This document shows positions 17,295 through 42,605 of a stretch of 64,000 bases of DNA, piece after piece. How positions within the stretch are numbered: position 1 is the stretch's first letter; each line of letters opens with the position of its first letter. The stretch is from Leucoraja ocellata. Taxonomy: Eukaryota. Below the pieces are notes generated by a model. It made no database searches and had not been told where the DNA came from. It saw only the letters and a program-made list of their open reading frames with translations. The stretch is taken from assembly GCA_036785375.1 (NCBI GenBank), contig JAWMAR010000053.1, positions 4,340,001 through 4,404,000 on the forward strand, given 5' to 3'. A program made the position numbers and the translations under genes.

Positions 17295-17410
17295 GTCTGG
17301 AGAAGGGTCTCGACCCGAAACATCACCTATTCCTTTCCTCCGGAGGTGCTGCCTGATTCGCTGAGTTACTCCAGCTTTTTGTCTTTGGTTTAAACCAGCA
17401 TTTGCAGTTC
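17295..17410 (+). mobile_element. Penelope pseudo-LTR-derived short repeat with degenerate hammerhead (CTGGAGA core)
   Basis: ctggaga-agggtctcgaccc-gaaacatc followed by the family arm gctgagttactccagc. Confidence 0.75.
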
Positions 17411-18108
17411 CTCCCTCCACATTTTGTCTGCTTCCAGATATAGTTGTGTTAATTGGAATTTGTTTTCAACATGATTGGGTGCATTAGCAAAGGTTCCCTA
17501 AAACAGGGCAGGCTGCTGGGAAAAGTAAAGACAAAAGCTGAGAAGAGACTTTATTCCTCATGGTTGTTGTCGTTGAAGACTTGTCCTCTGTGCACTCTGG
17601 GCAAATAGAGTTTGGTTGTATCTATATTTTGAAAGGGATGTGTTCACCAAAACTATTCCCCCATAACTACAGCTATAATCGGTGGTTGGCAAGGTGACTA
17701 TGGCCAAGGTTCCTTGCATGCTGTGTAAGGAAAGTTAGTTCTCTATTTGGGAGAATTGATTACAATTCATTTTGCTGGATCTGACGGCAACTAAACATCC
17801 AAATAAAAATGTACGTCAAGAGCTAAAGGAGTAATCAGTCAAATTAAGCACTCAATCAATTACACAATGGCTGAAAATAAAAAAAAACCTGCAAATGTTA
17901 CAACTAAAAAACAGAAACGTCTGCAGGTCAGGTAGCATTTGGAAAGTAGAAATAAAGTTAATGTTTCATGTTAATGTTTAAAGTTAATGTATAATGTGGA
18001 TCTATCGTCAGAGCTAGGAAACAAAGAAAATAAATTTAAAGTCGTAGAGAGGATGGGGAATGGATGCATAGGACAAGAATGAGGCAAAGGTTAAGTTATA
18101 GTGAAAAT

Positions 18109-18196
18109 AGACACAAAATGCTGGAGTAACTCAGCGGGCAAGACAGCATCTCTGGAGAGAAGGAATGGGTGACGTTTCTAGTCGAGACCCTTCTTC
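18109..18196 (-). mobile_element. Penelope pseudo-LTR-derived short repeat, hammerhead truncated
   Basis: Reverse complement reads gaagaagggtctcgactagaaacgtcaccc...gctgagttactccagcattttgtgtct. Confidence 0.75.
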
Positions 18197-18259
18197 CTAT
18201 GTTAAGTTATAGTGGTTCTCTGATCAAATGGGTTAATATGGGGCGATAGATCCACATCC

Positions 18260-18500
18260 ACATCCCCTCTCTCCCCCCTCCCCTCCCCCTCTACCCCCCT
18301 CCTCCTCTCCCCTACACCCCCCCTCCCTTCCCCCCCTCTCTCCCACTATTCTCTCCCCCATCTTGTCTCCCCCCTCCTGTCTCCCCTCTCTCCCCCTCCT
18401 CTCTCCCCTCTACCCTCTCTCACCCCTCCTTCCCCCACCTCTCCCCTCTTCCCCCCCTCTGCCCCCTTCCCCTCTTCTCCCCCTCTCTCCACCTCTACTT
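18260..18500. repeat. C/T-rich polypyrimidine low-complexity tract
   Basis: About 240 nt almost entirely C and T, ending about 60 nt before the exon-35 acceptor. Confidence 0.9.
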
Positions 18501-18560
18501 TCTTTAAAGATAATTGAGATTTTAATGCAAATACAAATTTACAAAATTCTGTTTATACAG

Positions 18561-18824
18561 CTGTCAAGATAAAGAAGACCTTGAAAAATCAGACCGTCAC
18601 AGAAACCAATGATGCAATCTTTATGTTGGAACTTACACATGCTGATGTTACTGGAGCACAATGGATTAAAAATGGTGAAGAAATCAAAACAAGCGACAAG
18701 TTCGAGATTACTGTAGTTGGGGTTGTACATACACTTAAAATTAAGAAGTGTGTTGTCCCAGATGAATCTGTATACACCTTCAAACTTGGCAGAGTGTCAG
18801 CAAATGCCAGACTTCACGTAGAGG
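18561..18824 (+). CDS. ttn: titin exon 35 equivalent (Ig I8)
   Basis: atacag|CT GTC AAG...GAG G|gtaagt; VKIKKTLKNQTVTET...DESVYTFKLGR...ARLHVE; 264 nt. Confidence 0.95.
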
Positions 18825-18857
18825 GTAAGTAATGACATTTTCTTTTCTTTTATGCCT

Positions 18858-19067
18858 TAAGTAAGTAAGTAAGTAAGTTTATTGGCCAAATATTCACATA
18901 CAAGGAATTTGCTTTGGTGCTCCGCGCACAAGTAACAACATGACATACCGTGACAGTTACGAATGACTCCGAAAACACTAAACATTAATAATAATAAAAC
19001 ATTAATGATAAAACACCATTGATCAAGCATGTGAACCAACAAAATACCAGATCAAAGGGAGGCTACA
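18858..19067 (-). mobile_element. non-LTR retroelement 3' end with (TAAG)n tail
   Basis: taagtaagtaagtaagtaag directly followed by ttttattgg (aataaa on the minus strand); family not assigned. Confidence 0.5.
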
Positions 19068-22676: not shown

Positions 22677-23223
22677 GTATGTACAAGAATAACAATAGAT
22701 TTTTGCTGTTTTGCAACCCTTTCAACTCTACAAATGTAACTCTTTAATTAGACAAAACTATATGCTTGAACAAAGTTTTTTCATTCAGGTAATTTATGAA
22801 GAGATTCTAAAAGCAGCACTAGAGAATGGAGGTGCTTAGAACTTCAGGAAGAAAATAGTAGAACTTTAGGCGATGTACTTTGTGAGTGTAAGGTGTTCAG
22901 GAGACCAAAGCTGAAGAATATTTGTGGTTTTGAGGTTGATGGGACAGATTGGAAGAGGTTATGATATTTTTATGAATGAAATAAATTAAACAGTGGGAAT
23001 ATTGAATTGGGGCTTTATAAGTGAGCCAATCAATGTAGTGCGGTTCAGGAGTTATGAAGAAAGAAAAGTAAGGGTTTCATCAGAATTTTACAGTTTACAA
23101 AGCGGAAAATAGGAAGCTGACAAGAATGCATCGGCATAGTTAAATTTTGAAGATACAAGAGGGTTTCAGCAGTAAATGGACTGATGCAGGAACAGAGGCT
23201 GAAGCTGGTAATAAAAAGGAGAC

Positions 23224-23316
23224 AGACACAAAATGCTTGAGTAACTCAGCGGGACAGGCAACATATCTGGAGAGAAGGGATGGGTGATGTTTCGGGATCG
23301 AGACCCTTTGTCAGAC
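23224..23316 (-). mobile_element. Penelope pseudo-LTR-derived short repeat, degenerate hammerhead
   Basis: Reverse complement reads gtctgacaaagggtctcgatcccgaaacatcaccc...gctgagttactcaagcattttgtgtct. Confidence 0.7.
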
Positions 23317-23628
23317 GGAGTATATAATAAGGAGATAATATGTGTATAATGAGATAGGATCCTAACCTTGAAAATAATTATGATGGATGAGAGAAAAAAT
23401 AACAACAGAAAATTATAAATAGAAGAACCCTCAGCAGATGAAAAACAGTGGCTGAAAATTTTAAAGCCTTTAATTGCAAATATACCTTGATATTATTTTT
23501 ACCAGGGTCAGAAGGAAAGGAATAGGGTTTGTGAGATGTTGATTCACACATGGATATAGAAGTCATAATATGTTATGGAAATTGCACTGTCTATAGATTA
23601 GTAAATTTATGTGGAGGGAAAGGTTGAT

Positions 23629-24013
23629 AACTTACAAAATTCTTAAGGGGTTGGACAGGCTAGATGCAGGAAGATTGTTCCCGATGTTAGGGAAGTCCAG
23701 GACAAGGGGTCACAGCTTAAGGATAAAGGGGAAATCCTTTAAAACCGAGATGAGAAGAACTTTTTTCACGCAGAGAGTGGTGAATCTCTGGAACTCTCTG
23801 CCACAGAGGGTAGTTGAGGCCAGTTCATTGGCTATATTTAAGAGGGAGTTAGATGTGGCCCTTGTGGCTAAGGGGATCAGGGGGTATGGAGAGAAGGCAG
23901 GTACGGGATACTGAGTTGGATGATCAGCCATGATCATATTGAATGGCGGTGCAGGCTCGAAGGGCCGAATGGCCTACTCCTGCACCTAATTTCTATGTTT
24001 CTATGTTTCTATG
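23629..24013 (+). mobile_element. young CR1 3' end with (TTTCTATG)n tail
   Basis: TYKILKGLDRLDAGRLFP...FFTQRVVNLWNSLP; near-identical to copies at 28172, 32315 and 34952. Confidence 0.93.
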
Positions 24014-24049
24014 ATAGTAGAAAAGTAGAATAAATTGAAGTAGATAGTG

Positions 24050-24326
24050 GGCGAGGAATCAGTCAGTGTAGTTATAACTGTCGGAAGAGAGAGTGGACGC
24101 TGGTGCGCTTTAGCTGCCACTGCTCTCTCTTCACATTGTGTTTTTTTTGATTTTTTGATTTTTGTGTCTTTGGAGCGATTTCTATCTTTAATTTGGGTAT
24201 TGATGATGTCATTAATTATTTTTCTCCGACTATATGTTTTTTTTCTCTTCTGTTTAATCTTTGTAAGGTGACCTTGAGATTTGAAAGGCGCCTGAAAATA
24301 AAATGTATTATTATTATTATTATTAT
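24050..24326 (+). mobile_element. L2-type retroelement 3' end with (TAT)n tail
   Basis: gtaaggtgaccttgag...gaaaggcgcc...aataaaatgtattattattat; the family call is inferred. Confidence 0.55.
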
Positions 24327-25364
24327 AAAGAATGGAAACAAACAAGGATATTTTGGTAATAAACCAAGTTGAATTTGCTTTGGCATTAAAGAGAGGACAA
24401 TAGATTGCAACAAAGTGTGTGCGCAGAGGCATTATAGGAAACTGTAGCATTTGTGTATATATCAATGCAAAAAATATTTATATGTGTACACTTTCATCTC
24501 AACAATGGTGAAATGAACATGTTAAAATTACTATCATGCAAACAGATTTAAGTGAAAGGCAAGATGTTGCTAGCTGTTACATGAAGTCTTTGTCGAAGGC
24601 AGGATATATGATCAATTATTCAGTTGGTTACAACAAGTTTGCTTTGAGCGAGCTGTTAATCTTGAGGAAAATTTACAGAGTGGCATTCATTGTTATCGTC
24701 TAACAGACTCAATAGACAATTGTCACGAGATGTGTGGGACAGGAAAGAGGTTCATGAGATCAGGTCTAAATGCCAAGAATGTTGCTGTGGGACAATCAGA
24801 ATTGATGCTCATCCAAAGGGAAAGCATGGGGCTTTGGTGGCCTTTATTAATATATTTGTAAATACTGAGGAAGGGGTTTAAAACATTTTCATTTCCATTA
24901 TTCATCTTTAGCAGAGGGAGGAGTGGTGAAATGCGATCCACAAATTATATTAATATTTACTTAATGGTCCTTTTCATTGACATCAATAAAATGGATAAGA
25001 GTGTGGATGGTATATTAAGCCGTCCCTTGCTGAACCTGTTTTGTGCACCTGCCCACTACTTCCAAGACAAAATTTTATTCAAGTAAAACTCAATTTGTTT
25101 CGGACAACTGTTTAAGAAATGCAACAAAAATGAAGGTGGTTAATTGAAGCTGAATATTAACTCTCCATAAATAAAGGCATCATATTGTGTTTTTCTTTAA
25201 ATATCCAATTATTTAGTTCTTTAAATTGATATTTTTTAAATGGCTTTTAACATATTCCAATTAGTTCAGGCAAATTCAGGAAAGTGTAACATTGCATGTG
25301 TGAAAGACCAAAATGTTATCAATTTGTGGAAATATGCTGAAATCTTGAACCTTCTTGTTTGTAG

Positions 25365-26169: not shown

Positions 26170-27460
26170 GTAAGTTCGAAATACAAACTTCAGCTTTACG
26201 TCTCTTTGTTTTTCTCTTCTTTACCACAAAGTGGTGACTTTTGCTAAAATTCGTTTCCAAAGGAATGTTTTCACTTACCTGAATTGATATGATTGATTGA
26301 ATTGAATTCCTTTATTGTCATTCAGACCTTACGGTCTGAACGAAATTTCGTGCCTGCAGTCATACATACAATAATACAATAATAAACAACAATAAACACA
26401 AATTAACATCCACCACAGTGAGTCCTCCAAACACCTCCTCACTGTGGTGGAGGCAAAAATCTTAGGGCTGCAGTCTCTTCCCTCTTCTTCTCCCTCTGCG
26501 CTGAGGCGATTCCCCACCGGGCGATGGTACAAACAGTCCCGCAGCTCACCGAACCCCGCGAACGGGCCGGTACGTGCCAGACCATTTTAGCTAACACAAC
26601 TGAGCTTCACCTGTGCTGACACATTATCTATACAAATCCAGGGACAGTTTCCTCCCAGCTCTTACCAGGCAACTGAACCATCCTATCAACAACTAGTTGC
26701 TAGTACTTTCTACCTCATTGGAGACCCTTGGCTATCTTTATTCAGACTTTACTGGACTTTATCTTGCACTAACATTAATCCTTTAACATGTATCTATACA
26801 CTGTGGATGGCTCGATTGTAATCATGTATAGTCTTTCTGCTGATTGGTAGGTACGCAACAAACGTTTTTCACTTTTCACTGTACCTCGATACATGTGACA
26901 ATAAACTAAACTGCAATGACATAGACCAACAGAGGTCACAGGTTAGTAATTAAGAGTTGAAATGCTGATTTTTTTTTTCATTCTCAAACTGGTAGATAAT
27001 TGTAGCTCCACAAATTAGTCTCCAAAATGATCATAAACTAGGTTGGCATGGCCGGGTTGGCCTGAAGTTTCCGTGCTTTATGACTGATTTTATGACTACA
27101 TTGTAATTAATGCCAGGTAATTCCAAACAAACAGTACTTTTACTCTACAAGTTTTACAAAGACTTTGGTATTCTGAAAAATGCAAGGAATCATGGGATTT
27201 GTCAAAGGTCAAAGCGCTGGCTGCATTTAATTTGAGGACCCAGGGTGCCAAGTAACGGGAGATTGAGAGAGAGGGGGCAGATGCGAGTGGGAGAGACTGG
27301 ACCGGCGGAGAGACATTCTCGACAGCTGCGCGCGCACAGGCCCGCACCTCATCCGCAGCCAGGATCGAACCCGGGTACCCGGCGCCTCAAGCGCTGCCGA
27401 AACGCCACTGGACCGTCTTCGGAGGAGGATAGGGGGAGACGGAGACGTCCGGACCGACGA

Positions 27461-27660
27461 GACACCGGCCTGGAGCAGCGGCGATCCCAGGCCCACAGCC
27501 AGCGCGGAGAAGAAGCGCCCGACCCCAGCTCAATTCCGCCTGCCCTGCCGGGCCAACTGACAACCCCGTACCGACAGGACACTGGCCCGGAGCAGCGGTG
27601 GCCCCAGTCCCAAAGCCAGCGCAGAGAAGGAGTGCCAACTCCAGCCCAAGCCCGCTCCAA
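27461..27660. repeat. two-copy direct repeat, period about 117 nt, inside a GC-rich island
   Basis: gacaccggcctggagcagcggcgatcccaggcccacagccagcgcggagaag (27461) versus gacactggcccggagcagcggtggccccagtcccaaagccagcgcagagaag (27578). Confidence 0.8.
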
Positions 27661-27792
27661 CTCTCGAGGAACACGCCCCCCGACGGGCCAGGGGCCGCCA
27701 GTCGCACCCCCCCCCCCCCCCCCCCGCCCCACCCAGCGGCCACCGACCAACCCCCCTGAGCTGGTGAAAGCCGAGCACCAGCCATCAACGGG

Positions 27793-27925
27793 GACACACA
27801 CAATATGCTACGGCAACTCAGCGGGTCAGGCAGCATCCCCAGAGAAAAGGACGTTTCGGGTCGAGACCCTTCTCCAGAGATGTTGCCTGACCCGCCGAGC
27901 CACCGCAGCACCCCGTGTGTATCCC
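27793..27925. mobile_element. inverted (fold-back) Penelope pseudo-LTR-derived repeat with many T>C changes
   Basis: Left arm actcagcgggtcaggcagcatc, central gtttcgggtcgagacccttct, right arm gatgttgcctgacccgccgag. Confidence 0.7.
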
Positions 27926-28171
27926 CGCCGATAACTGGCGCTCAGCACCCGCCGACACCGAAGGGGCCAACCGACAGCCACTGGACAAGGAGACAGGCAC
28001 AGCTGATGGTCTCCGGCCCGCCGGGGAACAGGACCCCCAGGAGTCGGAGCAGAGCCGAGTCAGAGCCAGCGTCCCCCTCCATGCCGGCTGCAAGCCCAGA
28101 GCTGCCACCGCTCTGGGCTGACGCTCAGCCAGTCCAGGGCTGACGGCTAATCCAACCGTACAGGCAGAGCC

Positions 28172-28707
28172 GAGATAGAAACATAGAAAATAGGCGCAGG
28201 AGTAGGCCATTCGGCCCTTCGAGCCTGATCATGGCTGATCATCCAACTCAGTATCCCATCCCTGCCTTCTCTCCATACCCCCTGATCCCTTTAGCCACAA
28301 GGGCCACATCTAACTCCCTCTTAAATATAGCCAATGAACTGGCCTCAACTACCTTCTGTGGCAGAGAATTCCACAGATTCACCACTCTCTGTGTAAAAAA
28401 TGATTTTTTCATCTCGGTCCTAAAAGACTTCCCTCTTATCCTTAAACTGTGACCCCTAGTTCTGGACTTCCCCAACATCAGGAATAATCTTCCTGCATCT
28501 AGCCTGTCCAACCCCTTAAGAATTTTGTAAGTTTCTATAAGATCCCCCCTCAATCTTCTAAATTCTAGCGTGTACAAGTCGAGTATATCCAGTCTTTCTT
28601 CATATGAAAGTCCTGACATCCCAGGAATTAGTCTGGTGAACCTTCTCTGTACTCCCTCTATGGCAAGAATGTCTTTCCTCAGATTAGGAGACCAAAACTG
28701 TACGCAA
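28172..28707 (-). mobile_element. young CR1 3' end
   Basis: Minus-strand CVQFWSPNLRKDILAIEGVQRRFTRLIPG...GYGEKAG, with the tail reading catagaaa on the plus strand. Confidence 0.93.
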
Positions 28708-29029
28708 TGATGGAGCCAGCGCTTCCCCCCCCCCGCACCGGCTGCAAGTCCGGGTCGCCAACCCCCCAGGCCGGCGCCATGCCAGTCCAGGGCCACCCCG
28801 GACACCTCCGGCCGCCCCTGGACAGGGACGGGAAACTCGGGTGGGGATGGGACGGCTCTGTAGCAACTCAACAGCACCCGCAGCCTGCAAACTCGCAACA
28901 GCACAGCTGCCGAGAATGTTTATCACGAGTGACCTATGACCTGGGCATGCACAGTCGAAATGCCGAACTCGCTTATTTCTCCATCTACACTGCACCTGCG
29001 CCCAGGATAAGGTTTTCATACTAGATGAT

Positions 29030-29690
29030 CGGCGATGTCCTCATTCTTTAGAAAAAGGGGGCTTCCCTTTTCCATTGTAGATGAGGCTCTCACTAGGGTC
29101 TCCTTGATATCCCACAGCTCCGCTCTTGCTCCCCCTCCCGCCATTCGCAACAAGGACAGTCCCCCTTGTCCTCACCTTCCACCCCATCAGCCGTTGCATA
29201 CAGCATATAATCCTCCAACACTTTCGCCACCTCCAACGGGATCCCACTACTGGCCATATCTTCCCATCTCCTCCCCTTTCTGGTTTCCGCAGAGACCATT
29301 CCCTCCACAACTCCCTGGTCAACTTGTCTCTTCCCACCCAAACCACCCCCTCCCCAGGTACATTCCCCTACAACCGAAGGAGATGCAACACCTCTCCCTT
29401 TACCTCCCCCCTCGACTCCATCCAAGGACCCCAACAGTCTTTTCAGATAAGGCAGAGGTTCATTTGCACCTCCTCCACCTCATCTACTGTATCCGCTGTT
29501 CCATGTGTCAACTTCTGTACATCGGCGAGACCAAGCGCAGGCTCGGCAATCGTTTCGTCGAGCACCTCCGTTCAGTCCGCCTTAACCTACCTGATCTCCC
29601 ATTTGCTCAGCACTTTAACTCCCCCTCCTATTCCCAATCTGACTTTTCTGTCCTGGTCCTCCTTCATTGCCAGAGTGAGGCCTAGCGCAA
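29030..29690 (+). mobile_element. Penelope-like element fragment (linker and GIY-YIG endonuclease), frameshifted
   Basis: PLVLTFHP...HFRHLQRDPTT...; LIYCIRCSMCQLLYIGETKRRLGNRFVEH is a GIY-YIG motif. Confidence 0.9.
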
Positions 29691-29775
29691 ATCTGTTTGT
29701 GTACAATTAGCATGTGGCCTAAGTAGTAACAGAACAATTACCGCCTATTGAGGTACTACATTTTAATTTCATGGA

Positions 29776-30332
29776 GACACAAGAGATTACTGATGCTGGA
29801 ATCTTGAACAAAAAATCAAACTGCTCAAGGAACTCAGTGGGTCAAGCAGCATCTATGAAGGGAAAAGGATCGACAACATTTTGGGTCATGCCCCTTCTTC
29901 AAACTGATGGAACTGATGGGAGATAGCTGGTGGAAAGAGGTGAGGGGAAGGGGGTGAGGCCAGAGCCGACAAGTGACAGGTGGATCTAACTGAGAAGAGT
30001 TTGATTGGCAGATGAGTCAGGTGGAGATAAAAAGTGTAGAGATAGTAACCAAACCGAGAGAGTGCAAATTGTGCAATCTGAACAGAAAGGAAAATGAGGA
30101 GTGCAAGTAAAACGGAGGAATGGATAGTAGGTATAAGGGAATGGGAGGTGGGGGGAAAATGTGGGAGGCCCAGTGTACAGAGGGATGGCAGATGAGTGGA
30201 TGATGGAGGAGAAAGGAACTGGGTGATGAAAGAGGGGCGGTGGGGGTGTTTGAATGGGGGTGGAGGTGGAGAGAAACTGGGTCAGTGAGATGGGACAGAG
30301 GTTACCCAAAATTGGAGAATTTGGTGTTCATG
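29776..30332 (-). mobile_element. degraded Penelope 3' end / pseudo-LTR, reverse orientation
   Basis: Reverse complement resembles 40260-40500: catgaac...ttctccaatttt, a pyrimidine-rich tail, and a decayed hammerhead arm. Confidence 0.65.
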
Positions 30333-30334
30333 AA

Positions 30335-31096
30335 AAAGTGGTTTAGTTTGTAGTTGTAGATGCAGCATTACCATGTCTCCTCCATCTCCCACAGTTCTGC
30401 TCTAGCAACACTTCCTTGGACAGAACAGATATAGAGTTTCTTTAACTTTGAACCCCACCAGAATCCAATACAGCATTAACTGACATTTCTGCCAGTTTCA
30501 GCGGCAAATGCCATAACCAGCCACATCTTCCTGTTTACACCTCTTTCTGCTTTCCATCAAGAACACTTTCTTCATGACTCTATTGCTCACTCATCCTTCC
30601 CCCAACCATCCTGCTCCCCTAGCAACTTACCCCAGTAACTGCAGGTGGTGCAGCACCTGTCCCTACACCTCCTCCCTCAATTCCCATTCCAAGATTTCAA
30701 CTGACCTTCCAGGTGAGACTGAAGTTTATATGCATCCTCCTCCAACTTCATTTTTGCATTTGCTGCTCTCGATTGTGACTTCCTCGGCATCAGTGAGGCT
30801 AAGTGTAAATTAGTTGACTGCTTTGCGCAATGTTTGCGCTCTGTCTACAAGGGCCTGCTGGATTTCCTTGATGTTAGCCATTTTAATTCTCCTTCTCATT
30901 CCCATATCGACCTGTCTTTCCTTGGCCTCCTCCACTGCCTACGTGCAAACTGGAAGAAGAGCCCCTCACATTTCCACTTGGGAGAACATAGATCTCAGTC
31001 TGAAGAAGGTTAACGACCCGAAACAACACCTATCTATGTTCATCTACAAAGGTGCTGCCTGACCCACTGAGTAAATCCAGCACTTTGTGTCTTTTC
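30335..31096 (+). mobile_element. degraded Penelope fragment ending in a hammerhead-type pseudo-LTR arm
   Basis: Decayed copy of the C..C/GIY-YIG region; ctgaaga-aggttaacgaccc-gaaac at 31000-31024 with the cleavage triplet mutated to AAC. Confidence 0.7.
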
Positions 31097-31319
31097 TCTA
31101 GTTCAGATGGAGCCTAAATCCTTAACCTATCGAAGTATCACAAAGCAATGCAACTTAAAACTCTTGGTAAAAGTTTATTGAAACCAAGTAACGCTACTGT
31201 TAAGTAGGCATAAGATAAGATATTAGAAGGAAAAATAAATGACGTTGGATTCTAATAAATGTAATAAAATGACTTTAATTGCTGCAGCATTTCTATGCTA
31301 ATGCTCTAACACAGGAAAT

Positions 31320-31412
31320 AGACACAAAATTCTGGAGTAACTTAGGAGGACAGGCAGCATCTGCGGGGAGAAGGTATAGGTGATGTTTTGCGTTAGGACC
31401 ATTCTTCAGACT
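31320..31412 (-). mobile_element. Penelope pseudo-LTR-derived short repeat, degenerate hammerhead
   Basis: agacacaaaattctggagtaac...ttcttcagact; the reverse complement starts agtctgaagaa. Confidence 0.65.
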
Positions 31413-32314
31413 AACATAGGAACATGACTCTTAAATTTAACTCTTGACTCCTTTCAATTTATTCAGGTTTGCCTCAAACCATCTCCCTGCCCTCAACCTT
31501 TTATAATACAAAATAAATTTGCCCCTGACTACTATTGACAAAAGCCTGTCTCTTCAAAGCCCAATCTATTCTTTATATCCTTGCACCTTAATCCAATTAA
31601 TTGTGTTAGTTCTGTGTTGTTAATTTCAATAACAAGGTTACTTTGATGTGAAATAACTTTAAGTTTACCAACACTTCAAGAATTACTTTTTTACTCCATG
31701 GAAGTTCCACATTTGATCAGACAGTAGAGTTTTTGTAGAGAAAAGAGGATAATGTTAATGGTATCCTTAAGTTGATCTTGAAAATGACGTCTGGTAGTTA
31801 CCTTAGCATACAGCTTTCTTTTTAAATCTGCCTTAAATATAATTGTTAGTCAATGTTTGGTTCATTAGGAGTTAATGCATTATTACTGAAGGCATCTGCC
31901 TAAGAAATCAACCTCGAGGTAACTGTTTAGACTTTTTATGGCATTAGCCACTTCTAACCATCTTCTCACAATCTTGCCTAGAAGAATCTTTTCATTAGGT
32001 GTTGTCACTTATTTTTCCATTGTTGTTTCATAATCATTGCTGCATATTGCAAACAAGGGTCATTTGGACAATGACAAGTGAAGTAAATCTAATCTACAGA
32101 TTTGGAGCATAGAACATTGAAAAGCACAGTACAGGAGCAGGCTCACAATGTTTGTGCTGAACATGATGCCAAGATAAGCTAATCCCATCTAGCAGCCCAT
32201 GATCATATCTCTCCCTTCAGTGCTCTTCAAGAGCACTGACAGCATCTACTTCTTGATCTCAAACTGCTCTTGCATATTAGTACTCTTCACACTAATATCA
32301 ATTAACTCCATGTC

Positions 32315-32556
32315 ATAGAAACATAGAAACATAGAAATTAGGTGCAGGAGTAGGCCATTCGGCCCTTCGAGCCTGCACCGCCATTCAATATGATCATGGC
32401 TGATCATCCAACTCAGTATCCCGTACCTGCCTTCTCTCCATACCCCCTGATCCCCTTAGCCACAAGGGCCACATCTAACTCCCTCTTAAATATAGCCAAT
32501 GAACTGGCCTCAACTACCCTCTGTGGCAGAGAGTTCCAGAGATTCACCACTCTCAC
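32315..32556 (-). mobile_element. young CR1 3' end
   Basis: (catagaaa)n tail and near-identity to the reverse complement of 23770-24013. Confidence 0.92.
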
Positions 32557-34150
32557 TCATGTCCTTCGCCTTGGCGCATACAGATGCAGAGTACTTAGTA
32601 CCTTGCCTAGATCCTCTGACACCAAGCATAAATTTCCTCCTTTATCCTTGAGTGGTCCCATTTTCTTCCTGGTTACCCACATGTTTTTAATGTACATATA
32701 AAAACCTGGGGACATTTGGCTCTTCTAATTGCCCATTTAAATTCTTTCCTGCTTACTTTATATTCAACAAGCTTAATTTCACCTTTCTAAATCATACACA
32801 TGTTCCTTTTTCTAATTGATCAATTTTGGTAGGTTTGGTTATCCAAGGGTCCCCTACATTGCATCTTATCCTTGTTCCTTATCCTTCTTCCTTACTCGAT
32901 CATGCTGTCCTGAAGTTGGCCTTTAAACTGCTCCCACATGTCAGAAGTGGACTTGCCCAATAACAACTGCTCCCAATTTACTCACTCCAACTACTGCCTA
33001 ATTATGCTGTAATTCCCTAATTTTGTATCCTCCTAAAAGATTCAGACTCATCCTTATTTATAACTATCTTAAAACTTATGGAGTTATGATCTCCGTTTCC
33101 AGAATACTCCTCCACAGAAACATCAGTAACCTGGGTCTTTCCCCAGTACAAGGTCCAGTAGGGTCTCTTCTTGAATTGGACTTTCCACATCCTGTTTCAT
33201 GAACCCATCTTCTGCAAATTCTGCCACTTCTAAGCCTTTCGATCAAGTGAGACCCAGTTAACATTGGAGAAGTTAAAGTCTCCTTCCGGGACAATCCTGT
33301 TGCTTTTGCATTTTTCTATAATCTATCTACATATATTTGTTCCTCTATCTCCTGTTGGCTATATGGAGGTCTATAGTACAGAGTGACTGCACCTTCCTTA
33401 TTTTTGAACTCTACCCATATTGCCTTAGTGGACAAAGCCTCCAGCATGTCCCCTCTAAGTGCCAGCGTGACTTCGCCCTGATTAACAGAGCAACTCCTCC
33501 ACCTCTTTTACCTCCCTATCACATTGGAACATCGATATCTGGAAATGTGGAGCTGCCTGTCCTATCCCTCTTGCAACCATGTCTCCATAAAGGCCAAAAT
33601 ATCATAGTTCCAAGCACTGATCCAGGGTCTAAATTCATCTGCTTTACTCACAATACTCCTCGCGTTGAAATAAGCACATCAGTCCATCAGTTTTACCATA
33701 TTCCTTAACCTCTCTATGCCTGTCCTTCCTTTAGTCTAACTTCTCAAACCTCTATCTTCCCACCAGTCCTTTCATTTGCTTACTCGTTCCCACACCTCTA
33801 CACTTTAGTTTAACCCCCCCCCAAAAAAAAAAAATTGGACCCCACCAGTTCAGGTGGAACTCGTCCCTCTTGCACAGGTCATCTGTGTCCCAATATCCAA
33901 AAACCTGAATCCCTGCCCTCAGCATCAACTGAACCACGCATTGATCTGTTCTGTCCCCCTATTTCTGCCATCACTAGCACATGGCAGTACTACCCTTGAG
34001 GTCCTACTTGTTAACCTTTTGCCTATCTCCCTATATTCACTCTGCAGGAACTTATCCTTTTCCTCCCAATGTCATTTGTGCCAATGTGCACAACATCTGG
34101 TTGCTCACCTTTCCCCTTGAGAATGTCCTGCAGCCACTCCAAGACATCCA
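32557..34150 (-). mobile_element. old CR1 5' region (ORF1 esterase and APE endonuclease relics)
   Basis: Minus-strand DLCKRDEFHLNW resembles the DGLHL motif of the CR1 ORF1 SGNH esterase; adjacent decayed endonuclease-like sequence. Confidence 0.6.
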
Positions 34151-34518
34151 GCAACCTTAATGTTACCTCTTGTTGTGTATTATTACTAGCATCGTCACAT
34201 CTATGATATACCCTGTGAGATCTATTTAATCATCTAAATTTAAACCTCCCCTCTGGTGAGATTTTGGTTGTATTATATTGTCAATTTTATTAAAGTTCAC
34301 TGCAGGCAGAAATGTATTCCTCCTCTGACGACTTTATGATGGCTTTGTTTTATTAACCAATTATCATTTATCATGCATGCAATATACTGAAATGCATCAG
34401 AATTAGCTTTTTGATTCTCCTTTCCAAATTGTTCTATCATACTTGCTATATCTAAAACCAAATGAATAAACCTTTTGCGAAATAGAGAGTTATTATAAGA
34501 TCTCCATGTAACTATTAA

Positions 34519-34736
34519 AGGGCCTGTCCCACTTGGCGTTTTTTTTCGGTGACATATCAGTGTCGCCAAAAGATTTCGAACATTTAAATCCAGCGGCGAC
34601 AAAAAAAATGTTGTGACACTTGAAAAAACACCGCGCCTCATACGTCATCACGCCGCATCACGCCGCAAATTTTTGGGTGACCTGATACGTCAGTCAATGA
34701 TGCCGGCAGTCGCCGAAAAAATCACCAAGTGGGACA
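34519..34736. mobile_element. MITE with terminal inverted repeats (PIF/Harbinger-like)
   Basis: agggcctgtcccacttggcgttttttttcggtgac ... gtcgccgaaaaaatcaccaagtgggaca; preceded by ttaa; right end clipped. Confidence 0.7.
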
Positions 34737-34951
34737 ATGCTACGATAAACTATTGCTTTGAATTCCACATATTTCCTGACAATTATTTGGTCACTTCTGT
34801 TGCAATTATCTATAAGACTTGTGTATCTCTTTTATATAATCCTAGTCGTTTTATTTTGCTAACCTTTAAAATAACTGAAATTGTCTGATAAAGTGCATCC
34901 TGATGTAGCATTTGATTATTAGGGTCAAATCCGAGCCATTTCTGGGTCTTA

Positions 34952-35880
34952 TATCTCCAAGTTTGCGGATGACACTAAGCTGGGGGGCAGTGTTAGCTGT
35001 GAGGATGATGCTAGGAGACTGCAAGGTGACTTGGATAGGCTGGGTGAGTGGGCAAATGCATGGCAGATGCAGTATAATGTGGATAAATGTGAGGTTATCC
35101 AATTTGGTGGCAAAAACAGGAAAGTAGACTATTATCTAAATGGTGGCCGATTAGGAAAAGGGGAGATGCAACGAGACCTGGGTGTCATGGTACACCAGTC
35201 ATTGAAAGTAGACATGCAGGTGCAGCAGTGAAGAAAGCAAATGGTATGTTAGCATTCAGAGCAAAAGGTTTTGAGTATAGAAGCAGGGAGGTTCTACTGC
35301 AGTTGTACAGGGTCTTGGTGAGACCAAACCTGGAGTACTGCGTACAGTTTTGGTCTCCAAATCTGAGGAAGGACATTCTTGCCATAGAGGGAGTACAGAG
35401 AAGGTTCACCAGACTGATTCCTGGGATGTCAGGACTTTCATATGAAGAAAGACTGGAAAGACTCGGCTTGTACTAGAATTTAGAAGATTGAGGGGGGATC
35501 TTATAGAAACTTACAAAATTCTTAAGGGGTTGGACAGGCTAGATGCAGGGAGATTGTTCCCGATGTTGGATAAGTCCAGGACAAGGGGGTCACAGTTTAA
35601 GGATAAAGGGGAAATCCTTTAGGACCGAGATGAGAAAATCTTTTTTCACACAGAGAGTGGTGGATCTCTGGAACTCACTGCCACAGAAGGTAGTTGAGGC
35701 CAGTTCATTGGCTATATTTAAGAGGGAGTTAGATGTGGCCCTTGTGGCTAAAGGGATCAGGGGGTATGGAGAGAAGGCAGGTACAGGATACTGAGTTGGA
35801 TGATCAGCCATGATCATATTGAATGGCGGTGCAGGCTCGAAGGGCCGAATGGCCTACTCCTGCACCTATTTTCTATGTTT
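34952..35880 (+). mobile_element. young CR1 3' portion (from the FADD motif to the tail)
   Basis: aagtttgcggatgacac (KFADD) through YCVQFWSP and FFTQRVV to the tttctatg tail. Confidence 0.94.
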
Positions 35881-37897
35881 GCTACTGGAATAAGAAAATA
35901 TTACTTGTGTTTGAAACATTTTCTTATCTTTATTCACAATTTATGTGTAAAAATATATTTAATCTGAGGCAGGCAGCGACTGTATCAGTGTGATGTAGGC
36001 TGATGCTTTACCTACAGGCGGTGTGAATGTACCGTTCAGGCAAAGATTATTCTTAGAGGAAAACTAAGTACAGGGTTGGCCCTGTGACAGAGCCGCCAAT
36101 CCTATATAAGACATTTAACTGCAAAATGCCTGCCCTTTAGCATTGGATAGATTGAGTGGAGGGTCTGTGCTGTTCCAAGTTTGCGGTGGTTGCGGTGCGT
36201 TTCCCCCAGCCATCTCGCCCGGTGCACGTTGACCAGCACAGTTCGCCAGCTCTTGTTAGCAGAGGCTCTTTGTGCAGGTGTTACCCAAAGAGATGTTCTG
36301 TGTTAGGTTCTGCACTCAGCGATCTCACGAGAGGGCTGTCAGATCAGATCAGCCCAGGTTGCAGGTGGCCGAAGGGTGGATTTTAATGTGCCGTTATTAA
36401 ACTGTTCCGTCTGTGTGGCATCGCCAGCTCTCCCTCTCCCAGGTCCCCCATCCCAACTGACGACAAAGTCTGACTGAGAAAATGCACACACTCTTATTAC
36501 GGGTTGGCTCTGTGTTTTCCCACTCGCTGGGGCGGGTGGCGCCTACTTCAAAGAGAGCGAGAACAGGGGAGCTGCGACCCACTCCTGAGTGAAGCCTCTA
36601 GTTTGGCTGCGGTTCAAATGGCTGCAAATTCTCATATTTATCACCGCCCGCTCACCCGGACCCAGCTCCCAACTGTGTGCCCTAATAGACTGGAACCAAC
36701 CCCAGAGGTTAAAGCGACAGCATCTCTATTTAAGACAACCTACCTTGAAACTTTAACCAGCCTGTTCGAATCCAATCTGAACTTTCCAACCTACCCCCAC
36801 ACAGCATATTCTCCTTGTTTCCTTCAATCCGGGAAAGTTGTTTAGATAGGAATGTAATGACTGTCTCAAATTGGTTGACCGCACAACTTCTAATTCATGT
36901 AAATCAATATCGAATTTGAATGGGTGTGACAGGTTAATACCAGGGATTTGATAATTGACAGGTTCGTTCCAGGCATTCGTGCGTTTTCAAGGCTGGTGCT
37001 CTCTTGAGTCAATAATTTAAATAGATACAATTGTGGATTTGTGTAACCTGCAGTACGCTGTGGCCTACTGCTGACATATTTGATGGATATATTTATTTAT
37101 AGATCTCATTGAAATGAATACGCAGGTCCGTACACACACGGTAGCTCAGCTGCTGAGAATGTTTATCCCGAATAACCCTTGACCTGGGAATGCGCAGTTG
37201 TAATACCAAACTCGCTTATTGATGGCATTTCAATTTCATAGTTCATAACACTAGTTAAATTAAAACAGGTTTTTAAAACTAAATTTGTTTTTAGAATGGT
37301 CACTAGCCCACAGCTAATTTTGTTTCTTTCGTGTTGATTCAAAATAAAAATGCCAATATCTTTCCATTTTTTTACAAGCATACAGTGTACGTAAAGTTTT
37401 GTCAGAGACGTGCAGCGTGAGAATGTTTTGTCTTCAATTTTTGATTTATTTTCACTTTTTTTGGGCTAACATTATGAAAGTTGTACATATATTATACTAA
37501 AGGTCCAAAAAAATATGTTATTCATGAGGCTTGGAAGTCCAGACTATATTTTCAGTGGGATACATTCACATTAAGCTAAACAATGTTTGGGATCACTTCA
37601 AATTGTTCCTGTTCTGGATCGCAAACTGACAATACAGAAATTATCGTTTTTAATATATTGGAATCTTTCATCAAGAATCTTATATCACGATTTTAACATA
37701 ATTTGCAGCAGTAACTAGAGTTGCTCATGATCCTCATGGAATTTGTGTCAATCTTTCCAGTATCCATTTAGATCAAAACAAGAAGTTAAACAAAAGGAAA
37801 CAAAGTAGCAATTAAAAAAACAGAAGCGCTTTTACTGAAACAGAAAAATCAAAACGTAATCCAGGCTGTTTTCTGTAGGAAACAAAATAACTGAAGA

Positions 37898-38558
37898 ATA
37901 GACAATAGACAATAAACAATAGGTGCAGGAGTAGGCCATTCGAGCCAGCACCACCATTCAATGTGATCATGGCTGATCATCCCCAATTAGTACCCCGATC
38001 TTGCCTTCTCCCCATATCTCCCGACTCCGCTATCTTTAAGAGCCTTATCTAGCTGTCTCTTGAAAGTATCCAGAGAACCGGCCTCCCACCGCCCTCTGAG
38101 GCAGAGAATTCCACAGACCCACATCTCTCTGTGAGGAAAAAGTGTTTCCTTGTCTCCGTTCTAAATGGCTTACCCCTTATTCTTAAACTGTGGCCCCTGG
38201 TTCTGGCTCCCCCAACATTGGGAACATGCTTCCTGCCTCTAGCGTTTCCAAACCTTAATAATCTTATATGTTTCAGTAAGATATCCTCTCATCCTTCTAA
38301 ACTCCAGAGTATACAAGCCCAGCTACTCCATTCTCTCAACATATGACATATCACGCCATCCCGGGAATTAACCTTATAAACCTACGATGCACTCCCTCAA
38401 TGGCAAGAATGTCCTTCCTCAAATTAGGGGACCAAAACTGTACACAATACTCCAGGTGTGGTCTGACTAGAGCCCTATACAACTGCAGAAGGACCTCTTT
38501 GCTCCTATACTCAACTCCTCTTGTTATAAAGGCCAACATGCCATTAGCTTTCTTCACT
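37898..38558 (-). mobile_element. CR1 3' end, subfamily with (ATTGTCT)n tail
   Basis: Minus-strand VKKANGMLAFITRGVEYRSKEVLLQLYRALVRPHLEYCVQFWSP; tail aatagacaatagacaata on the plus strand. Confidence 0.92.
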
Positions 38559-38774
38559 ATAAACTTAATCTCCACAATGAAATAATACTTTAATGCTCGT
38601 AGTAAAGCGTAAAGAAAAATAATAAAAGTAGTAAGAGCCTCAATCGACTTATATTCTCAATTCCACAGCAATCCAATGAAAGTCACCTCGTCTACACTTC
38701 TTTCAGCCTGTCTCTTGCAAGGACACCAATCCTTATTCCTAATATCTGTCCAAGTTGCATTCTAGAAAATCCAA

Positions 38775-39480
38775 GAAGTCCTCCTTCTTCAGTGAATGTG
38801 GTTTCCTCTTTGCTGCTGTGGATGGAGCCCTCAGCCATGTCTATCTGTGTCTTGCAGTTCTGCTATTGTTCCCCCTTCCCCATGTTGGAACAAGGATAAA
38901 GTTCCCCTTGTCCGCACCTTTCACACTACAGACTCTGCATCCAATACATAATTCTCTGAAGTTTTTGCCACCTTCATAGTGATCCCACTACCGTTCACAT
39001 CTTTCCATCCCCAACCATTTTTGCTTTCCCAACAGAACATTCCCTCTGCAACTCCTCGGTTCACTCATCCCTCCCCACCTAACCTGCTCCTTTCCCAGGT
39101 ACTTTCCTCTGCAACTGCCGGCGATGTAACACCTGTCCCTACACCTCTCTCACATCCTTCCAGGGTGCCCAGCAGCCCTTTCAGGTGACACAGAGGTTCA
39201 CGCGCACCTTTTCAAACTTTGTCTACTTCACTCTGTGCTCCCAACGTGGCCTATTCATTGGCGAGACCAATCAAATACTAGGCGACCGTTTCGCTGAATG
39301 CTTGCACTCTGTCCACCAAGGCTTGCTGGATCACCCAGTTGCTAACCATTTTAACTTCCCATTCCCATACTGAACTTTCTGTCGTTAGCATTAGGCCACT
39401 TGAGGAACAGCTCCTCGTGTTCTGTTTCGGTAGCTTACAACCCAACAGTATGAGCATTGAATCCTTCAATTTCAAGTAAT
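38775..39480 (+). mobile_element. degraded Penelope-like fragment
   Basis: QRFTRTFSNFVYFTLCSQRGLFIGETNQILGDRFAE is a decayed GIY-YIG motif. Confidence 0.75.
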
Positions 39481-39672
39481 ATCCCCTCTCTTTTCCTTGT
39501 GCGCACTTTGTAGTGCACATATTTCTCCCTCCTCATCACAAACCACCCTGCCACCTATGCTCCTTTCTCCTCCAAACGCTCATCTCTCGCCCCTGAGGTG
39601 CCCCTTTTATGTCTCTTATCAGGAAGACCTCAGCTCCCCTGTGAAACCCATCTGCCAATCAAACTCCCCTCA

Positions 39673-40498
39673 CCTAGTCCCCCTAATCCTCACCTTTCAC
39701 CCCACCAGGCGTCACATACAACAAGTAATCCTCCGTCAGTTTTGCCACCTCCAACGTGACCCCACCACTCGCCACATCTTCCCATCTCCCCCCATGTCTG
39801 CCTTCCACAAAGACCGCTCCCTCCGCAACTCCCTTGTCAATTCTTCCCTTCCCTCCCGTACCACCCCTTCCCCGGGCACTTTCCGTTGCAACCGCAAGAA
39901 ATGCAACACCTGTCCCTTTACCTCCCCCCTCGACTCCATTCAAGGACCCAAGCAGTCGTTCCAGGTACGACAGAGGTTCACCTGTATCTCCTCCAACCTC
40001 ATCTACTGCATCCGCTGCTCTAGATGTCAGCTGATCTACATCGGTGAGACTAAGCGGAGGTTGGGCGATTGTTTCGCCGAACACCTCCGCTCGGTCCGCA
40101 AGAACCTACCTGACCTCCTGGTGGCTCAGGACCTCAGCTCCCCTTCCCATTCCCCGTCCAACCTCTCTGCCCTGGGTCTCCTCCATGGCCAGAATGAGCA
40201 ACACTGGAAATTGGAGGAACAGCACCTCATATTCCGCTTGGGGAGTCTGCATCCTGCGGGCATGAACATTGAATTCTCCCAATTTTGTTAGCCTTTGCTG
40301 TCTCCTCCCCTTCCTCAGCCCTCGGGCTGTCTCCTCTCATCCCTCAGCCATCGGGCTCCTCCTCCTCCATTTTCCTTCCTTCTCCCCGCCACCCCCTATC
40401 AGTCTGAAGAAGGGTTTTGGCCTGAAACGTTGCCTATTTCCTTTGCTCCATAGATGCTGCTGCACCCGCTGAGTTTCTCCAGCATTTTTGTGTACCCT
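39673..40498 (+). mobile_element. Penelope-like element 3' part: open GIY-YIG ORF, stop at 40291, pseudo-LTR with hammerhead
   Basis: PLILTFHP...CNRKKCNTC...NLIYCIRCSRCQLIYIGETKRRLGDCFAEH...PAGMNIEF, then ctgaaga...gaaacgtt. Confidence 0.92.
40401..40435 (+). ncRNA. minimal type-I hammerhead ribozyme motif (Penelope-associated)
   Basis: CUGAAGA (40404-40410), imperfect stem II gggttttggcct, GAAAC, GUU; stem I is weak. Confidence 0.6.
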
Positions 40499-40772
40499 CA
40501 CCTATATCCACTTACCACATGCAAGACTTTGCCCCACCTTTCACCTCTCTTTTCCAATTTTCCCTCTAATCCGTCAGTCTGAGAAATAAAGTCATTATTG
40601 CTTAAGAAAATACTACCAATTCACCAAACAAGATAAAGTAAAAAGACAAATAACAGGCAAGGAGATTAGAGAACCAACAAAGAACTGAAGATAGACACAA
40701 AAAGCTGGAGTAACTCAGCGGGACAACAAAATGAGAGATGACACAAAAAGCTGGAGTAACTAAGCAGAGAGA

Positions 40773-40806
40773 GGTCTGAAGAAGGGTCTCGACCTGAAAC
40801 GTCACC
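40773..40806 (+). ncRNA. minimal type-I hammerhead ribozyme motif, core intact
   Basis: GGU-CUGAAGA-A-GGGUC-UC-GACCU-GAAAC-GUC^ACC: all core nucleotides present, stem II, 3-bp stem I (GGU/ACC), loopless ACGU stem III. Confidence 0.75.
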
Positions 40807-42605
40807 CATTCCTTCTCTCCAGAGGCTGCTTGTCCCGCTGAGTTACTCCAGCATTTTGTGTCTACCTTCGAGTAACTCAGCAAACAAACTACTCGGAGAA
40901 CAATTTTTGGAAAGCAATTGAATACATATTATATTTACCAATGGCGATTTAGTCAATTAAGGATGTTGTATTGTTAATTAAGTGTGATATATTGATGTGA
41001 TATATTGATTCAGTAATTTGGCTGAATTATACGAGGATCAAAATGTTTTTAGTTTTGATTGAATCTTCCAAAATATATTTATTTTATGCATTTCTTTTAC
41101 AATAGTAATATCATGTGCTTTCCAAAATTTAAATAGACAAATGACGTGTTTGAGTTGTGCATGACTAAGTGAAACAAACAGTGATACAATAGCCAATTAT
41201 TATTTTTCTGTGGAAGGGACATGGGCCTTTAGATATACTTGTCTTTCTGTCGGTCTTGTGGAATAGTCCTTTTCTTCAAATTGTGCTTTTATACCCAGGT
41301 CAAGTATTAAGATTTTATTAATTGGAATGGATTTTGGAGACTGCACATGTATATTTAAATGTGGAAATGCAGAATTTGCTGAGAATTATTCCTTGTCAAA
41401 TATTTCTAGCATTTTCTGCTAATCCCCTACATTCCCAGCTGATTATGGTGCAGGTTGAACATCGATTTACTGGCTGTCCCCTATAATCCAGACAAAATTA
41501 CGAGAGCTCAATTGAAATTCCCTGAGTGGCCGCAGATGGCATTGCGAGTAGAGAGTGCTTTTTCTGATTGTGTCCCTCCGTAGTGAAAGAATCAACTATG
41601 CCATCAATCTTCTCTCCTAACTGTTTCACAAAGACAATACTGTAAACCCTATTTTGAACGACTCCCTTATAACAGATGTCGTTTATAGAGGACGGACCTA
41701 CCGACCCATCTCCGCCTCGCACCATCTCCCCAGCTGTTTAGAGTCCCGGCTTCCGACCTACTCGCGACTCACAAAGTGCATCAGCAAGCCCTTCTTCACC
41801 CACCGAAGAACACAAAGTGCTAGAGTAACTGAGCGGGTCAGGATCTCAGGAGAACATGGATAAGTAACATTCCTCAGACTGATTCAGTCAGCAGTGTTAG
41901 TCCAGCCCTTCTTGCCATTTCACTTTAAAACTAGGCAACAATGCCGTTGGTATGCAACAAACAGTGAGCCCTTCTTCACCGGCTCACAGCTATTGTTGCG
42001 GCTCACATTGTGGCTCCTGGGGACAACTTTGTTCAGTGTGCCCCTACTGACAGAACTTGGTCATCGTGGGATGCCCTTCCCTCTCACCTGCTGTCCCAGG
42101 GCTCTAAACGCCCGGGGAGTTGGTGGGAGCCAGGGATGCAGGTCATCTCTTTCACAAACATTTTATATTTGTTCTATTTAAGTTTCTGGCACTTGATGGT
42201 GCTTGGGAAACACGGGAGTGGTGTCATTAGTGGGCCAGGGGTATATTGTCATTTCATTATCACGTGACCTCTGCTGGTCCAGAGAAACAGATAACCAAGG
42301 CTGCCGGAAAATAAGTGTTCAACCTGTATAACTTTTTTGAGTTCCTTCTGCTCTTAGTTTAGTACTTAACTCATGGATTCCTGTTGCCTTCTGCCCTCAC
42401 TTCTTTTATATATACAATTCCACTGCCTAACTGGTTTTTGGAATATTCAGTACTTTATTTCAATTTCAACATCATTACATCAAATACTAAGTATTTTACA
42501 GTTGTATTATTTGATGTAATTGTATCACTTCTGTTAGTAAGTTTTGGATCTATAGTCAGTTTGTGATAATGTTTCTGATTAAAATACATTTTATTCTAAA
42601 CATAG

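Follow-up and report, generated by a model that had tools for sequence, protein, structure and literature searches.

The Penelope-like elements (PLEs) that most resemble the sequences analysed here are the endonuclease-bearing (EN+) Neptune and Nematis types, which have a C-terminal GIY-YIG domain, a Cx2-5CxxC linker, 5'-truncated insertions, inverted partial copies and a tail of 30-40 bp (Craig et al. 2021, PMC8557442). In the pseudo-long terminal repeats (pLTRs) of PLEs, minimal type I hammerheads combine CUGANGA and GAAA cores with an extra base after A9, a G10.1-C11.1 pair, a palindromic, loopless helix III and a short helix I; most are single dispersed motifs "probably related to truncated PLEs", some form opposite-strand pairs 100-700 bp apart, and a monomer from Schistosoma showed no cleavage (Cervera and De la Pena 2014, PMC4209133). 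Here, we describe a family of ~90-nt modules in a stretch of 64,000 nucleotides from the titin gene of the skate Leucoraja ocellata (GenBank assembly GCA_036785375.1, contig JAWMAR010000053.1, positions 4,340,001 to 4,404,000; hereafter the window, with coordinates counted from its first letter). Judged by their sequence, the modules are terminal-repeat pieces of a Neptune-type PLE. They have the hammerhead features and the dispersed, partly opposite-strand arrangement listed above, except that helix II has 4 bp and a 4-nt loop compared to 7-8 bp in Schistosoma. The domain organization and 5' truncation of Neptune and Nematis also recur, with antisense stubs as inverted partial copies and a ~35-nt extension at 17385 as a tail, but here only broken ends of the open reading frame (ORF) are present.

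Three other systems are relevant for comparison. In Poseidon of Anolis (PAc), the reverse transcriptase (RT) starts internally at two sites, RNA beyond these sites is needed, and insertion mainly uses uncleaved RNA (Frangieh et al. 2024, PMC11167929). The copies in the window, too, end at two 3' points beyond a hammerhead that was left uncleaved, likewise off the cleavage site; while the Poseidon paper treats 3' ends, a fixed 5' end is added here. Metazoan non-LTR retrozymes are, like the modules, non-coding, hammerhead-bearing, PLE-related and dispersed as monomers (PMC7229834; bioRxiv 10.64898/2026.07.22.740005). However, retrozymes have tandem units (150-450 bp, PMC7229834) with a hammerhead in each and form circular RNAs, whereas none of the 10 copies here is tandem; and the canonical type I motif of retrozymes has a helix III, a loop 3 and a 6-bp helix I, whereas the modules have no loop 3 and a 2-bp helix I. 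Finally, RNA that is hyper-edited by ADAR has dense one-strand A-to-G changes in long duplexes and depletion of G at the 5' neighbour (Porath et al. 2014, PMC4365171). One fold-back copy in the window has the same pattern, in genomic DNA rather than in RNA reads and with 3'-G enrichment absent. The accessible part of PMC4209133 contains no description of a fixed 5' edge, and sharks and skates did not turn up in the part of its supplement that was searched. As a repeat family, the modules are of an expected kind; what exceeds the descriptions found is their fixed 5' edge, together with the hypermutated fold-back.

Results

Module copies in titin introns

A preliminary description, made from the sequence alone, had listed ten ~90-nt copies at 17295 (+), 18109 (-), 23224 (-), 27793 (fold-back), 29776 (-), 30997 (+), 31320 (-), 40401 (+), 40773 (+) and 41810 (relic). 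These copies and their strands are real: an nhmmer profile seeded with seven module copies recovered all ten in the 64-kb window, while the best match in the reversed window, used as a control, was no better than E 8.6. E-values of the seven seed copies (1.8e-27 to 4.5e-23) are low by construction; those of the non-seed sites are 1.4e-15 (29776), 1.9e-15 (27793) and 1.1e-8 (41810, on the minus strand). Further matches of the profile are the other arm of the fold-back (27869-27913, +) and two additional antisense stubs of the module 3' part (40694-40725 and 40740-40767, together 40694-40767, -). Nine aligned copies are 65-90% identical to each other. At 17920-17972 (-), there is a weak possible module relic (E 0.045).

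The host gene is titin, as proposed in the preliminary description, and lies on the + strand: the ORF at 8818-10587 matches titin immunoglobulin (Ig) chains in PDB with E 4e-56, and Ig-like segments span the window. No module copy overlaps a titin Ig ORF. Two copies lie in the intron at 16292-18517, one in 22745-25348 and seven in 26175-42514; these introns are bounded by Ig-like segments, and small non-Ig exons might escape this definition. No stray copies were matched in bacterial and archaeal genome contigs, and a protein search with the translated module yielded 0 of 6 candidates. Literature searches on the family in elasmobranchs and on solo pLTRs gave no description of it, and no passage on pLTRs or hammerheads came up in PMC12602865; the family may well be in Repbase or Dfam.

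Ends of the short copies

The module consists of the minimal hammerhead and ~60 nt. At the 3' side, the copies share an end point that lies ~60 nt beyond the cleavage site, with an optional tail of ~35 nt. At the 5' side, six short copies end at -5 to +2 from C3, i.e. ~30 nt upstream of the cleavage site, and copies with differing downstream sequence subtypes have the same edge. The cleavage site coincides with neither end of the solos. Four of the seven short copies tested have flanking direct repeats of 12-14 bp (0-2 of 400 random pairs in the null comparison), and these target-site duplications (TSDs) support independent retrotransposition of the short copies. The junctions fixed by TSDs in these four copies all lie at -3 to +2, plus at most 7 nt of filler.

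The 97-nt solo insert at 18104-18200 (-) has perfect 14-bp TSDs (18090-18103 and 18201-18214); its homology begins at G5, and four unmatched nucleotides occupy positions -2 to +1. The solo module at 23224-23316 (-; G8 to A, 1-nt insertion in stem II) has a 7-nt filler at the 5' junction and a 12-bp TSD with one mismatch at about 23211-23222 and 23324-23335, and the one at 31320-31411 (-; G12 to A, stem II damaged) has a 12-bp TSD with one mismatch that overlaps the 5' edge by AG. The solo module at 40774-40863 (+; C3 at 40776) has an intact core, a 7-nt filler and a 13-bp flanking direct repeat with one mismatch. This TSD is the least secure of the four because the flanking repeat is itself antisense module sequence. 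For the short module at 17295-17384 (+; core A6 to G), the 5' edge is at -2 from C3 (17297) and a TSD was not found; its 3' extension of ~35 nt at 17385-17420 (+) is also present in the protein records P0013 and P0016. The relic at 41808-41883 (-), in which stem II is deleted, has its 5' edge at about -5, and its 10-bp flanking repeat, set back by 14-23 nt, was excluded from the TSD count.

The short copies might be explained by ordinary random 5' truncation or by recombination between terminal repeats, with the length peak reflecting ascertainment as the low-complexity untranslated region (UTR) aligns poorly. PLE insertions are typically heavily 5'-truncated (PMC8557442), solo pLTRs in rotifers have been ascribed to recombination or deletion (PMC3846280), and the sample is small. 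On the other hand, TSDs fix the four junctions without the use of alignment, and no insert of ~100 to ~550 nt is seen in the window. In a simulation of exponential truncation with ten draws (six short copies, two stubs and two long copies, with the fold-back and 30997 left out), six of ten inserts ended within 8 nt with P 0.008 for a mean length of 50 nt and P <=3e-4 for means of at least 100 nt. We consider this explanation highly improbable. The solos are not cleavage-defined, nor, in this small sample, are they random truncations; the possibility, set out beforehand in the preliminary description, that they are mere random truncations does not fit with six short copies that start within 8 nt.

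The same data bear on the idea, also advanced in the preliminary description, of a retrozyme-like self-propagating family. Had the solos originated as non-LTR retrozyme monomers, units of ~90 nt in tandem would self-cleave as dimers, circularise and undergo one round of reverse transcription. The constant unit length fits with this origin, as does the description of vertebrate retrozymes that derive from pLTRs, are present in one chondrichthyan and also occur as dispersed monomers (bioRxiv 10.64898/2026.07.22.740005). A representative protein search gave only five matches, which are too few for statistics and may be biased by ORF calling; in these five records, five of six antisense junctions lack the stop that an upstream TCA would give, in line with the fixed 5' edge, and three records have at least two modules, including P0014, in which two head-to-tail modules with a spacer also fit with a retrozyme. 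By contrast, membership in the retrozymes fails within the window because none of 21 rows from Tandem Repeats Finder (TRF) is a module array; there are no head-to-tail units, no insert is permuted or longer than one unit, and the ends ignore the cleavage site. Moreover, the 5' fillers vary between copies and fail to match the 3' continuation, and the motif is of the minimal PLE type and not the canonical type I of PMC7229834. Thus, we regard an origin as retrozyme monomers as very unlikely.

Parent element

The Penelope origin given in the preliminary description is supported by the copies at 40401 and 29776, in which the module lies behind the end of a GIY-YIG ORF and is connected to it by a UTR. 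The 5'-truncated PLE at 39677-40494 (+, 818 nt) has a Cx4CxxC linker, a GIY-YIG ORF with its stop ending at 40291, a 112-nt UTR and an intact-core module at 40402-40494, and is flanked by a perfect 10-bp TSD (39667-39676 and 40495-40504). The older PLE end at 29776-30330 (-) contains the last ORF codons, a ~400-nt pyrimidine-rich UTR, a module at 29817-29904 (C3 to U, G12 to A) and a tail. Because the ORF end and UTR precede its module, this copy is not a solo, and the earlier statement that the module usually stands alone does not extend to 29776. Attachment to a GIY-YIG ORF end had been claimed for 40401 and 30997. It stands for the former. At 30463-31092 (+), a degenerate PLE ORF piece extends to ~30982 and is followed, after 10 nt, by the module at 30998-31092 (U16.1 to A); the ORF piece is much older than the module it adjoins, and the link between them is uncertain because the last codons and the whole UTR are missing and there is no TSD.

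Two additional PLE pieces were identified. A broken ORF fragment with thumb, linker and GIY-YIG at 28976-29690 (+) has no hammerhead behind it. An older broken PLE ORF with a long UTR lies at 38704-39666 (+), and the remainder of this element, with a core relic at its end (~40575-40585), probably continues at 40495-40585; alignment of its UTR to 29890-30340 was not better than shuffles. In the region 39667-40585, a younger PLE with a 10-bp TSD is thus located inside the UTR of an older PLE. The PLE pieces also cluster at 28976-31412, where their orientations alternate (+ ORF, - UTR/module, + ORF/module, - solo).

The linker before GIY-YIG marks both the Neptune and the Nematis clades (PMC8557442), and Neptune-type is a provisional label here, the RT core being absent from the window. 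Pfam detects GIY-YIG in the ORF pieces with E 0.002-0.04, which is under the curated cut-off; both ORF pieces tested have the Cx4CxxC linker upstream of GIY-YIG, among 110 homologs that contain the GIY-YIG motif, 104 have a Cx2-5CxxC linker, and homologs at 57-65% identity have a YIDD motif upstream of GIY-YIG. The closest named BLASTP relatives of the ORF piece are proteins of the ray and shark genera Mobula, Rhincodon, Hypanus, Stegostoma and Chiloscyllium (55-65% identity), and the end of a Stegostoma protein read-through has a weak translated module match (E 0.014). The ray proteins P0021 and P0067, which are named as kinase-domain and chitinase-domain isoforms, consist largely of PLE RT-EN sequence and are probably mis-annotated or exonised.

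The 40401 copy is only 70-79% identical to the solos, while the solos at 18109, 23224 and 40773 are 84-90% alike. This difference fits with an explanation in which the solos are a non-autonomous PLE derivative similar to short interspersed nuclear elements (SINEs), with ORF-less masters composed of module, tail and protein-binding stretch that are mobilised in trans by the Neptune enzyme. Constant length and TSDs are also in agreement with such masters, putatively non-autonomous PLEs have been reported in Chlamydomonas (PMC8557442), and pLTRs acting in trans in a rotifer (PMC3846280). However, there is no master in the window, and the inserted solos stop at the presumed priming site. In addition, copies with differing downstream subtypes have one common edge; therefore, a recurring mechanism fits better than a single master deletion. 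We consider a SINE-like derivative rather unlikely.

Hammerhead anatomy and core decay

In the majority sequence, the CUGANGA and GAAA cores are complete, U16.1-H17 is present, an extra A follows A9 (in 9/9 aligned copies), helix II has 4 bp, a palindromic ACGU replaces helix III and helix I has 2 bp. The module ends, therefore, carry a minimal PLE-type hammerhead motif with putative activity, as suggested in the preliminary description. This call is made by motif and position and without a covariance model because the Rfam hammerhead had 0 matches in the window scan and was not among 11 weak matches in a second scan. Helices I and II pair in 89% of cells compared to 33-44% when slid, and covariation in helices I and II was not above shuffles (192/500).

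Only the copies at 40401 and 40773 retain all 11 invariant core bases. The claim that most copies have core mutations is thus confirmed, as 8/10 miss at least one of these bases; the claim that the family spreads self-cleaving motifs is overstated, as these eight have broken cores and the two intact cores pair G10.1 with U11.1, which by its sequence is CpG decay. Among nine copies, the G10.1-C11.1 pair is GC in five, GU in two and broken in two. The palindrome at 15.2-16.2, which has no loop 3, is ACGU in 4/10 copies, and has CA or TG, fitting with CpG decay, in 6/10. Over eight copies, CpG positions decay fastest (18/64 vs 81/581 other positions, p=0.005). In five solos, core positions changed in 2/48 cases vs 33/364 for other positions (p=0.41), giving no sign that the core is protected, and CpG positions in 10/40. 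Depletion of intact cores on the sense strand, for which the preliminary description had suggested a test, was not supported within the window (2/4 sense vs 0/6 antisense, p=0.13).

A distance of 372 nt separates the sole two intact cores, both on the titin sense strand (40392-40815). Any self-cleavage would require a dimer, which these two cores could, in principle, form, although their fold as a dimer exceeds the minimum by 14.6 kcal/mol. Pairing is also predicted between the 3' part of the 40401 module and the antisense stub at 40694-40725.

A hypermutated fold-back

The preliminary description correctly identified a fold-back at 27793 but missed its true size of ~1.07 kb and its one-strand hypermutation. 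At the hairpin apex (27796-27922), a minus copy (27796-27878, C3 at 27877) is followed by a plus half-copy (27867-27922), and the strand switch lies at the internal inverted repeat of the module. The left arm at 27307-27849 has a T content of 0.08 on the + strand and is hypermutated from T to C on + (A to G on -). It pairs through 27529-27849 with the inner right arm (27867-28174) and through 27307-27528 with the outer right arm (28709-28924); arm alignment scores are 326 (inner) and 114 (outer) compared to shuffle maxima of 55 and 48. The right arm is interrupted by a 534-nt 3' fragment of a long interspersed nuclear element (LINE), presumably CR1-like, at 28175-28708 (-), which is not hypermutated. 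In the ~100 nt beyond the true duplex, the alignment is no better than shuffles. A dispersed repeat without assignment, present at 28882-28977 and 37125-37220, crosses the outer end of the right arm, and the left arm stops inside it.

Mismatches between the arms are strongly directional, with 94 A-to-G changes on the minus strand vs 21 opposite transitions in 307 columns of the inner arm (p 1.6e-12) and 45 vs 14 in 210 columns of the outer arm (p 3e-5), or 139 vs 35 for both arms, while mismatches are symmetric in four control inverted pairs. The direction is set by the module, which has 12 T>C vs 1 A>G on the + strand; T>C accounts for 12/22 module substitutions in the fold-back vs 7/96 in the eight other copies (p=2e-6). 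At scorable A sites, 101/145 (~70%) are changed, with few other substitutions. By 5' neighbour, the changed fractions are 26/31 for U, 23/28 for A, 30/45 for C and 22/41 for G, i.e. G is depleted (Fisher p=0.015). The T fraction is 0.08-0.12 in the arms, 0.29 in the LINE insert and 0.22-0.32 in the flanks, and the unpaired insert is spared, with 5 T>C in 524 columns. An edge test on a shared repeat gave 4/11 vs 1/14 (p=0.13, weak). Because each arm has changes absent from the other, the changes post-date the duplication. RNA from the minus strand folds into one long hairpin (-430 kcal/mol, z -15.5; plus strand -286, z -8.8).

Among the explanations considered for this ADAR-type signature in DNA, an edited hairpin RNA that was copied back into DNA likely fits best. 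For the hairpin, we also take seriously, while leaning against it, that the skew arose in place, by R-loop template-strand deamination or by selection for an RNA that tolerates G-U pairs, or that it reflects an assembly error. The minus strand is the titin template strand, its RNA folds far better than that of the plus strand, and the hairpin has no retrocopy TSD or tail, all of which fit with an origin in place. The change of ~70% of scorable A sites with few other substitutions, the 5'-neighbour order of U and A over C over G, and the symmetric control pairs argue against it, as does the unpaired LINE insert, which, lying untouched in the middle of the hairpin, also argues against an assembly error. 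GC-biased conversion was rejected because the change is one-stranded. The hairpin arms had no tblastn match that would make them PLE coding sequence, and no weight was given to a weak SINE-like match at 27350-27417. Re-integration of edited retrotransposons is expected to be rare, in a passage that concerns DNA editing (PMC2873906). Judged by titles and the openings of abstracts, the literature searched has no clear precedent for an ADAR-type signature fixed in chromosomal DNA, which is not proof of absence.

Other elements in the window

One LINE family, which we take to be CR1-like, is present as many fragments (2-1140, 4494-6128, 23597-24014, 32313-32554, 34923-35880, 37898-38558 and 57271-57661), with RVT_1 detected at 4494-5357. 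The pieces at 23773-24014 and 32313-32554 are 100% identical over 242 nt, which suggests recent activity or an assembly duplication. At 43069-44265 (-), there is an internally deleted Tc1/mariner-type transposon with ~215-bp terminal inverted repeats that are 85% alike and a remnant of DDE_3 and a Sleeping Beauty helix-turn-helix. Two very large titin coding stretches on the + strand, 48765-52676 (1303 aa) and 52694-56152 (1152 aa), have sparse Ig domains and are, we assume, possibly cardiac or novex-type exons. A sigma-70 promoter scan of the window, a model irrelevant to a vertebrate, found nothing.

Discussion

Based on the ends of the short copies, we suggest a model in which the ~90-nt copies are probably fixed-length products of the enzyme of the parent element, i.e. 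pieces of its terminal repeat that are unable to move again. In this model, the GIY-YIG domain would nick the target, and the RT would prime at an internal site of the element RNA that lies ~60 nt past the hammerhead, itself uncleaved, as Poseidon does in vitro (PMC11167929). Priming in the 3' repeat would give rise to long, variably truncated inserts such as 39677-40494 and 29776. In the short copies, synthesis would very often stop at the 5' edge of the hammerhead. As a consequence of stopping at the presumed start site, with no RNA beyond it, the solos would be unable to serve as templates again, if the rule from Poseidon applies.

For the stop itself, we tentatively favour run-off at the 5' end of the RNA, analogous to LTR strong-stop DNA. 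The edge sequence TCAGTC resembles the Initiator consensus, and an Initiator-like TCACT has been noted in a rotifer pLTR (PMC3846280). The next candidate, with a smaller share of our belief, is snap-back of the cDNA onto the internal inverted repeat of the module, in which the core strand pairs ~35 nt downstream (-12.1 kcal/mol; equalled by 7/1000 shuffles). The predicted cDNA fold closes at this repeat, and the junction of the 27793 fold-back sits on it. Other stalls appear unlikely as the general cause. We also discounted a 5' edge set by splicing, for which the Drosophila intron with its end at helix I (PMC4209133; PMC2377424) would be a parallel, as the fillers are at most 7 nt and have no common exon sequence.

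Occasionally, snap-back synthesis might continue and copy the flank, giving rise to fold-backs such as 27793. In the least certain step, to which we give an even chance, the minus strand would give a transcript of the long hairpin, and this RNA would be hyper-edited by ADAR and returned to DNA by reverse transcription.

Several observations weigh against this model. An ORF-linked copy of the solos' own subtype is absent from the window, and therefore the templates could be non-autonomous masters; the spaced module pair in P0014 also points elsewhere. In the test for clustering of 5' ends, the two stubs are not independent insertions, and with the four TSD-bounded copies alone the result is weak (P 0.27, 0.06 and 0.01 for mean lengths of 50, 100 and 200). 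Over eight copies, the core has changed less than other non-CpG positions (4/78 vs 81/581, p=0.03), which we attribute to selection in the source elements. Folds of the whole module are not more stable than shuffles (z -0.2 to +1.5 in 7 copies), which speaks against a structural stop. TCAGTC could just as well be read as a splice acceptor, and three of the four best-defined junctions lack the A that an Initiator should have. The rules for priming derive from Poseidon, which belongs to another clade than the Neptune-type PLE. As for the hairpin, the neighbour 3' of changed sites is not enriched for G (39/60 for G, less than the 29/36 for C and 23/30 for A; chi2 p=0.11), and an outer TSD or tail was not found around it (best direct repeat 9 nt with one mismatch, no poly(A)).

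With these points in mind, we put forward, with some reservation, the joint proposal that the solos are the PLE counterpart of strong-stop DNA and mark the 5' end of the RNA, and that the hairpin, a palindrome built when a Penelope insertion snapped back at its hammerhead, is a germline fossil of adenosine-to-inosine (A-to-I) editing. If this is true, the fixed 5' edge is a genome-scale readout of the RNA start or of the RT stop in the PLE cycle, and also bears on how the inverted structures typical of PLEs form. Similarly, the ADAR-type signature in chromosomal DNA would, if true, provide direct evidence for the entry of edited RNA into the germline, and it suggests a simple genome-wide screen for inverted repeats with one-directional C/T and A/G differences between their arms.

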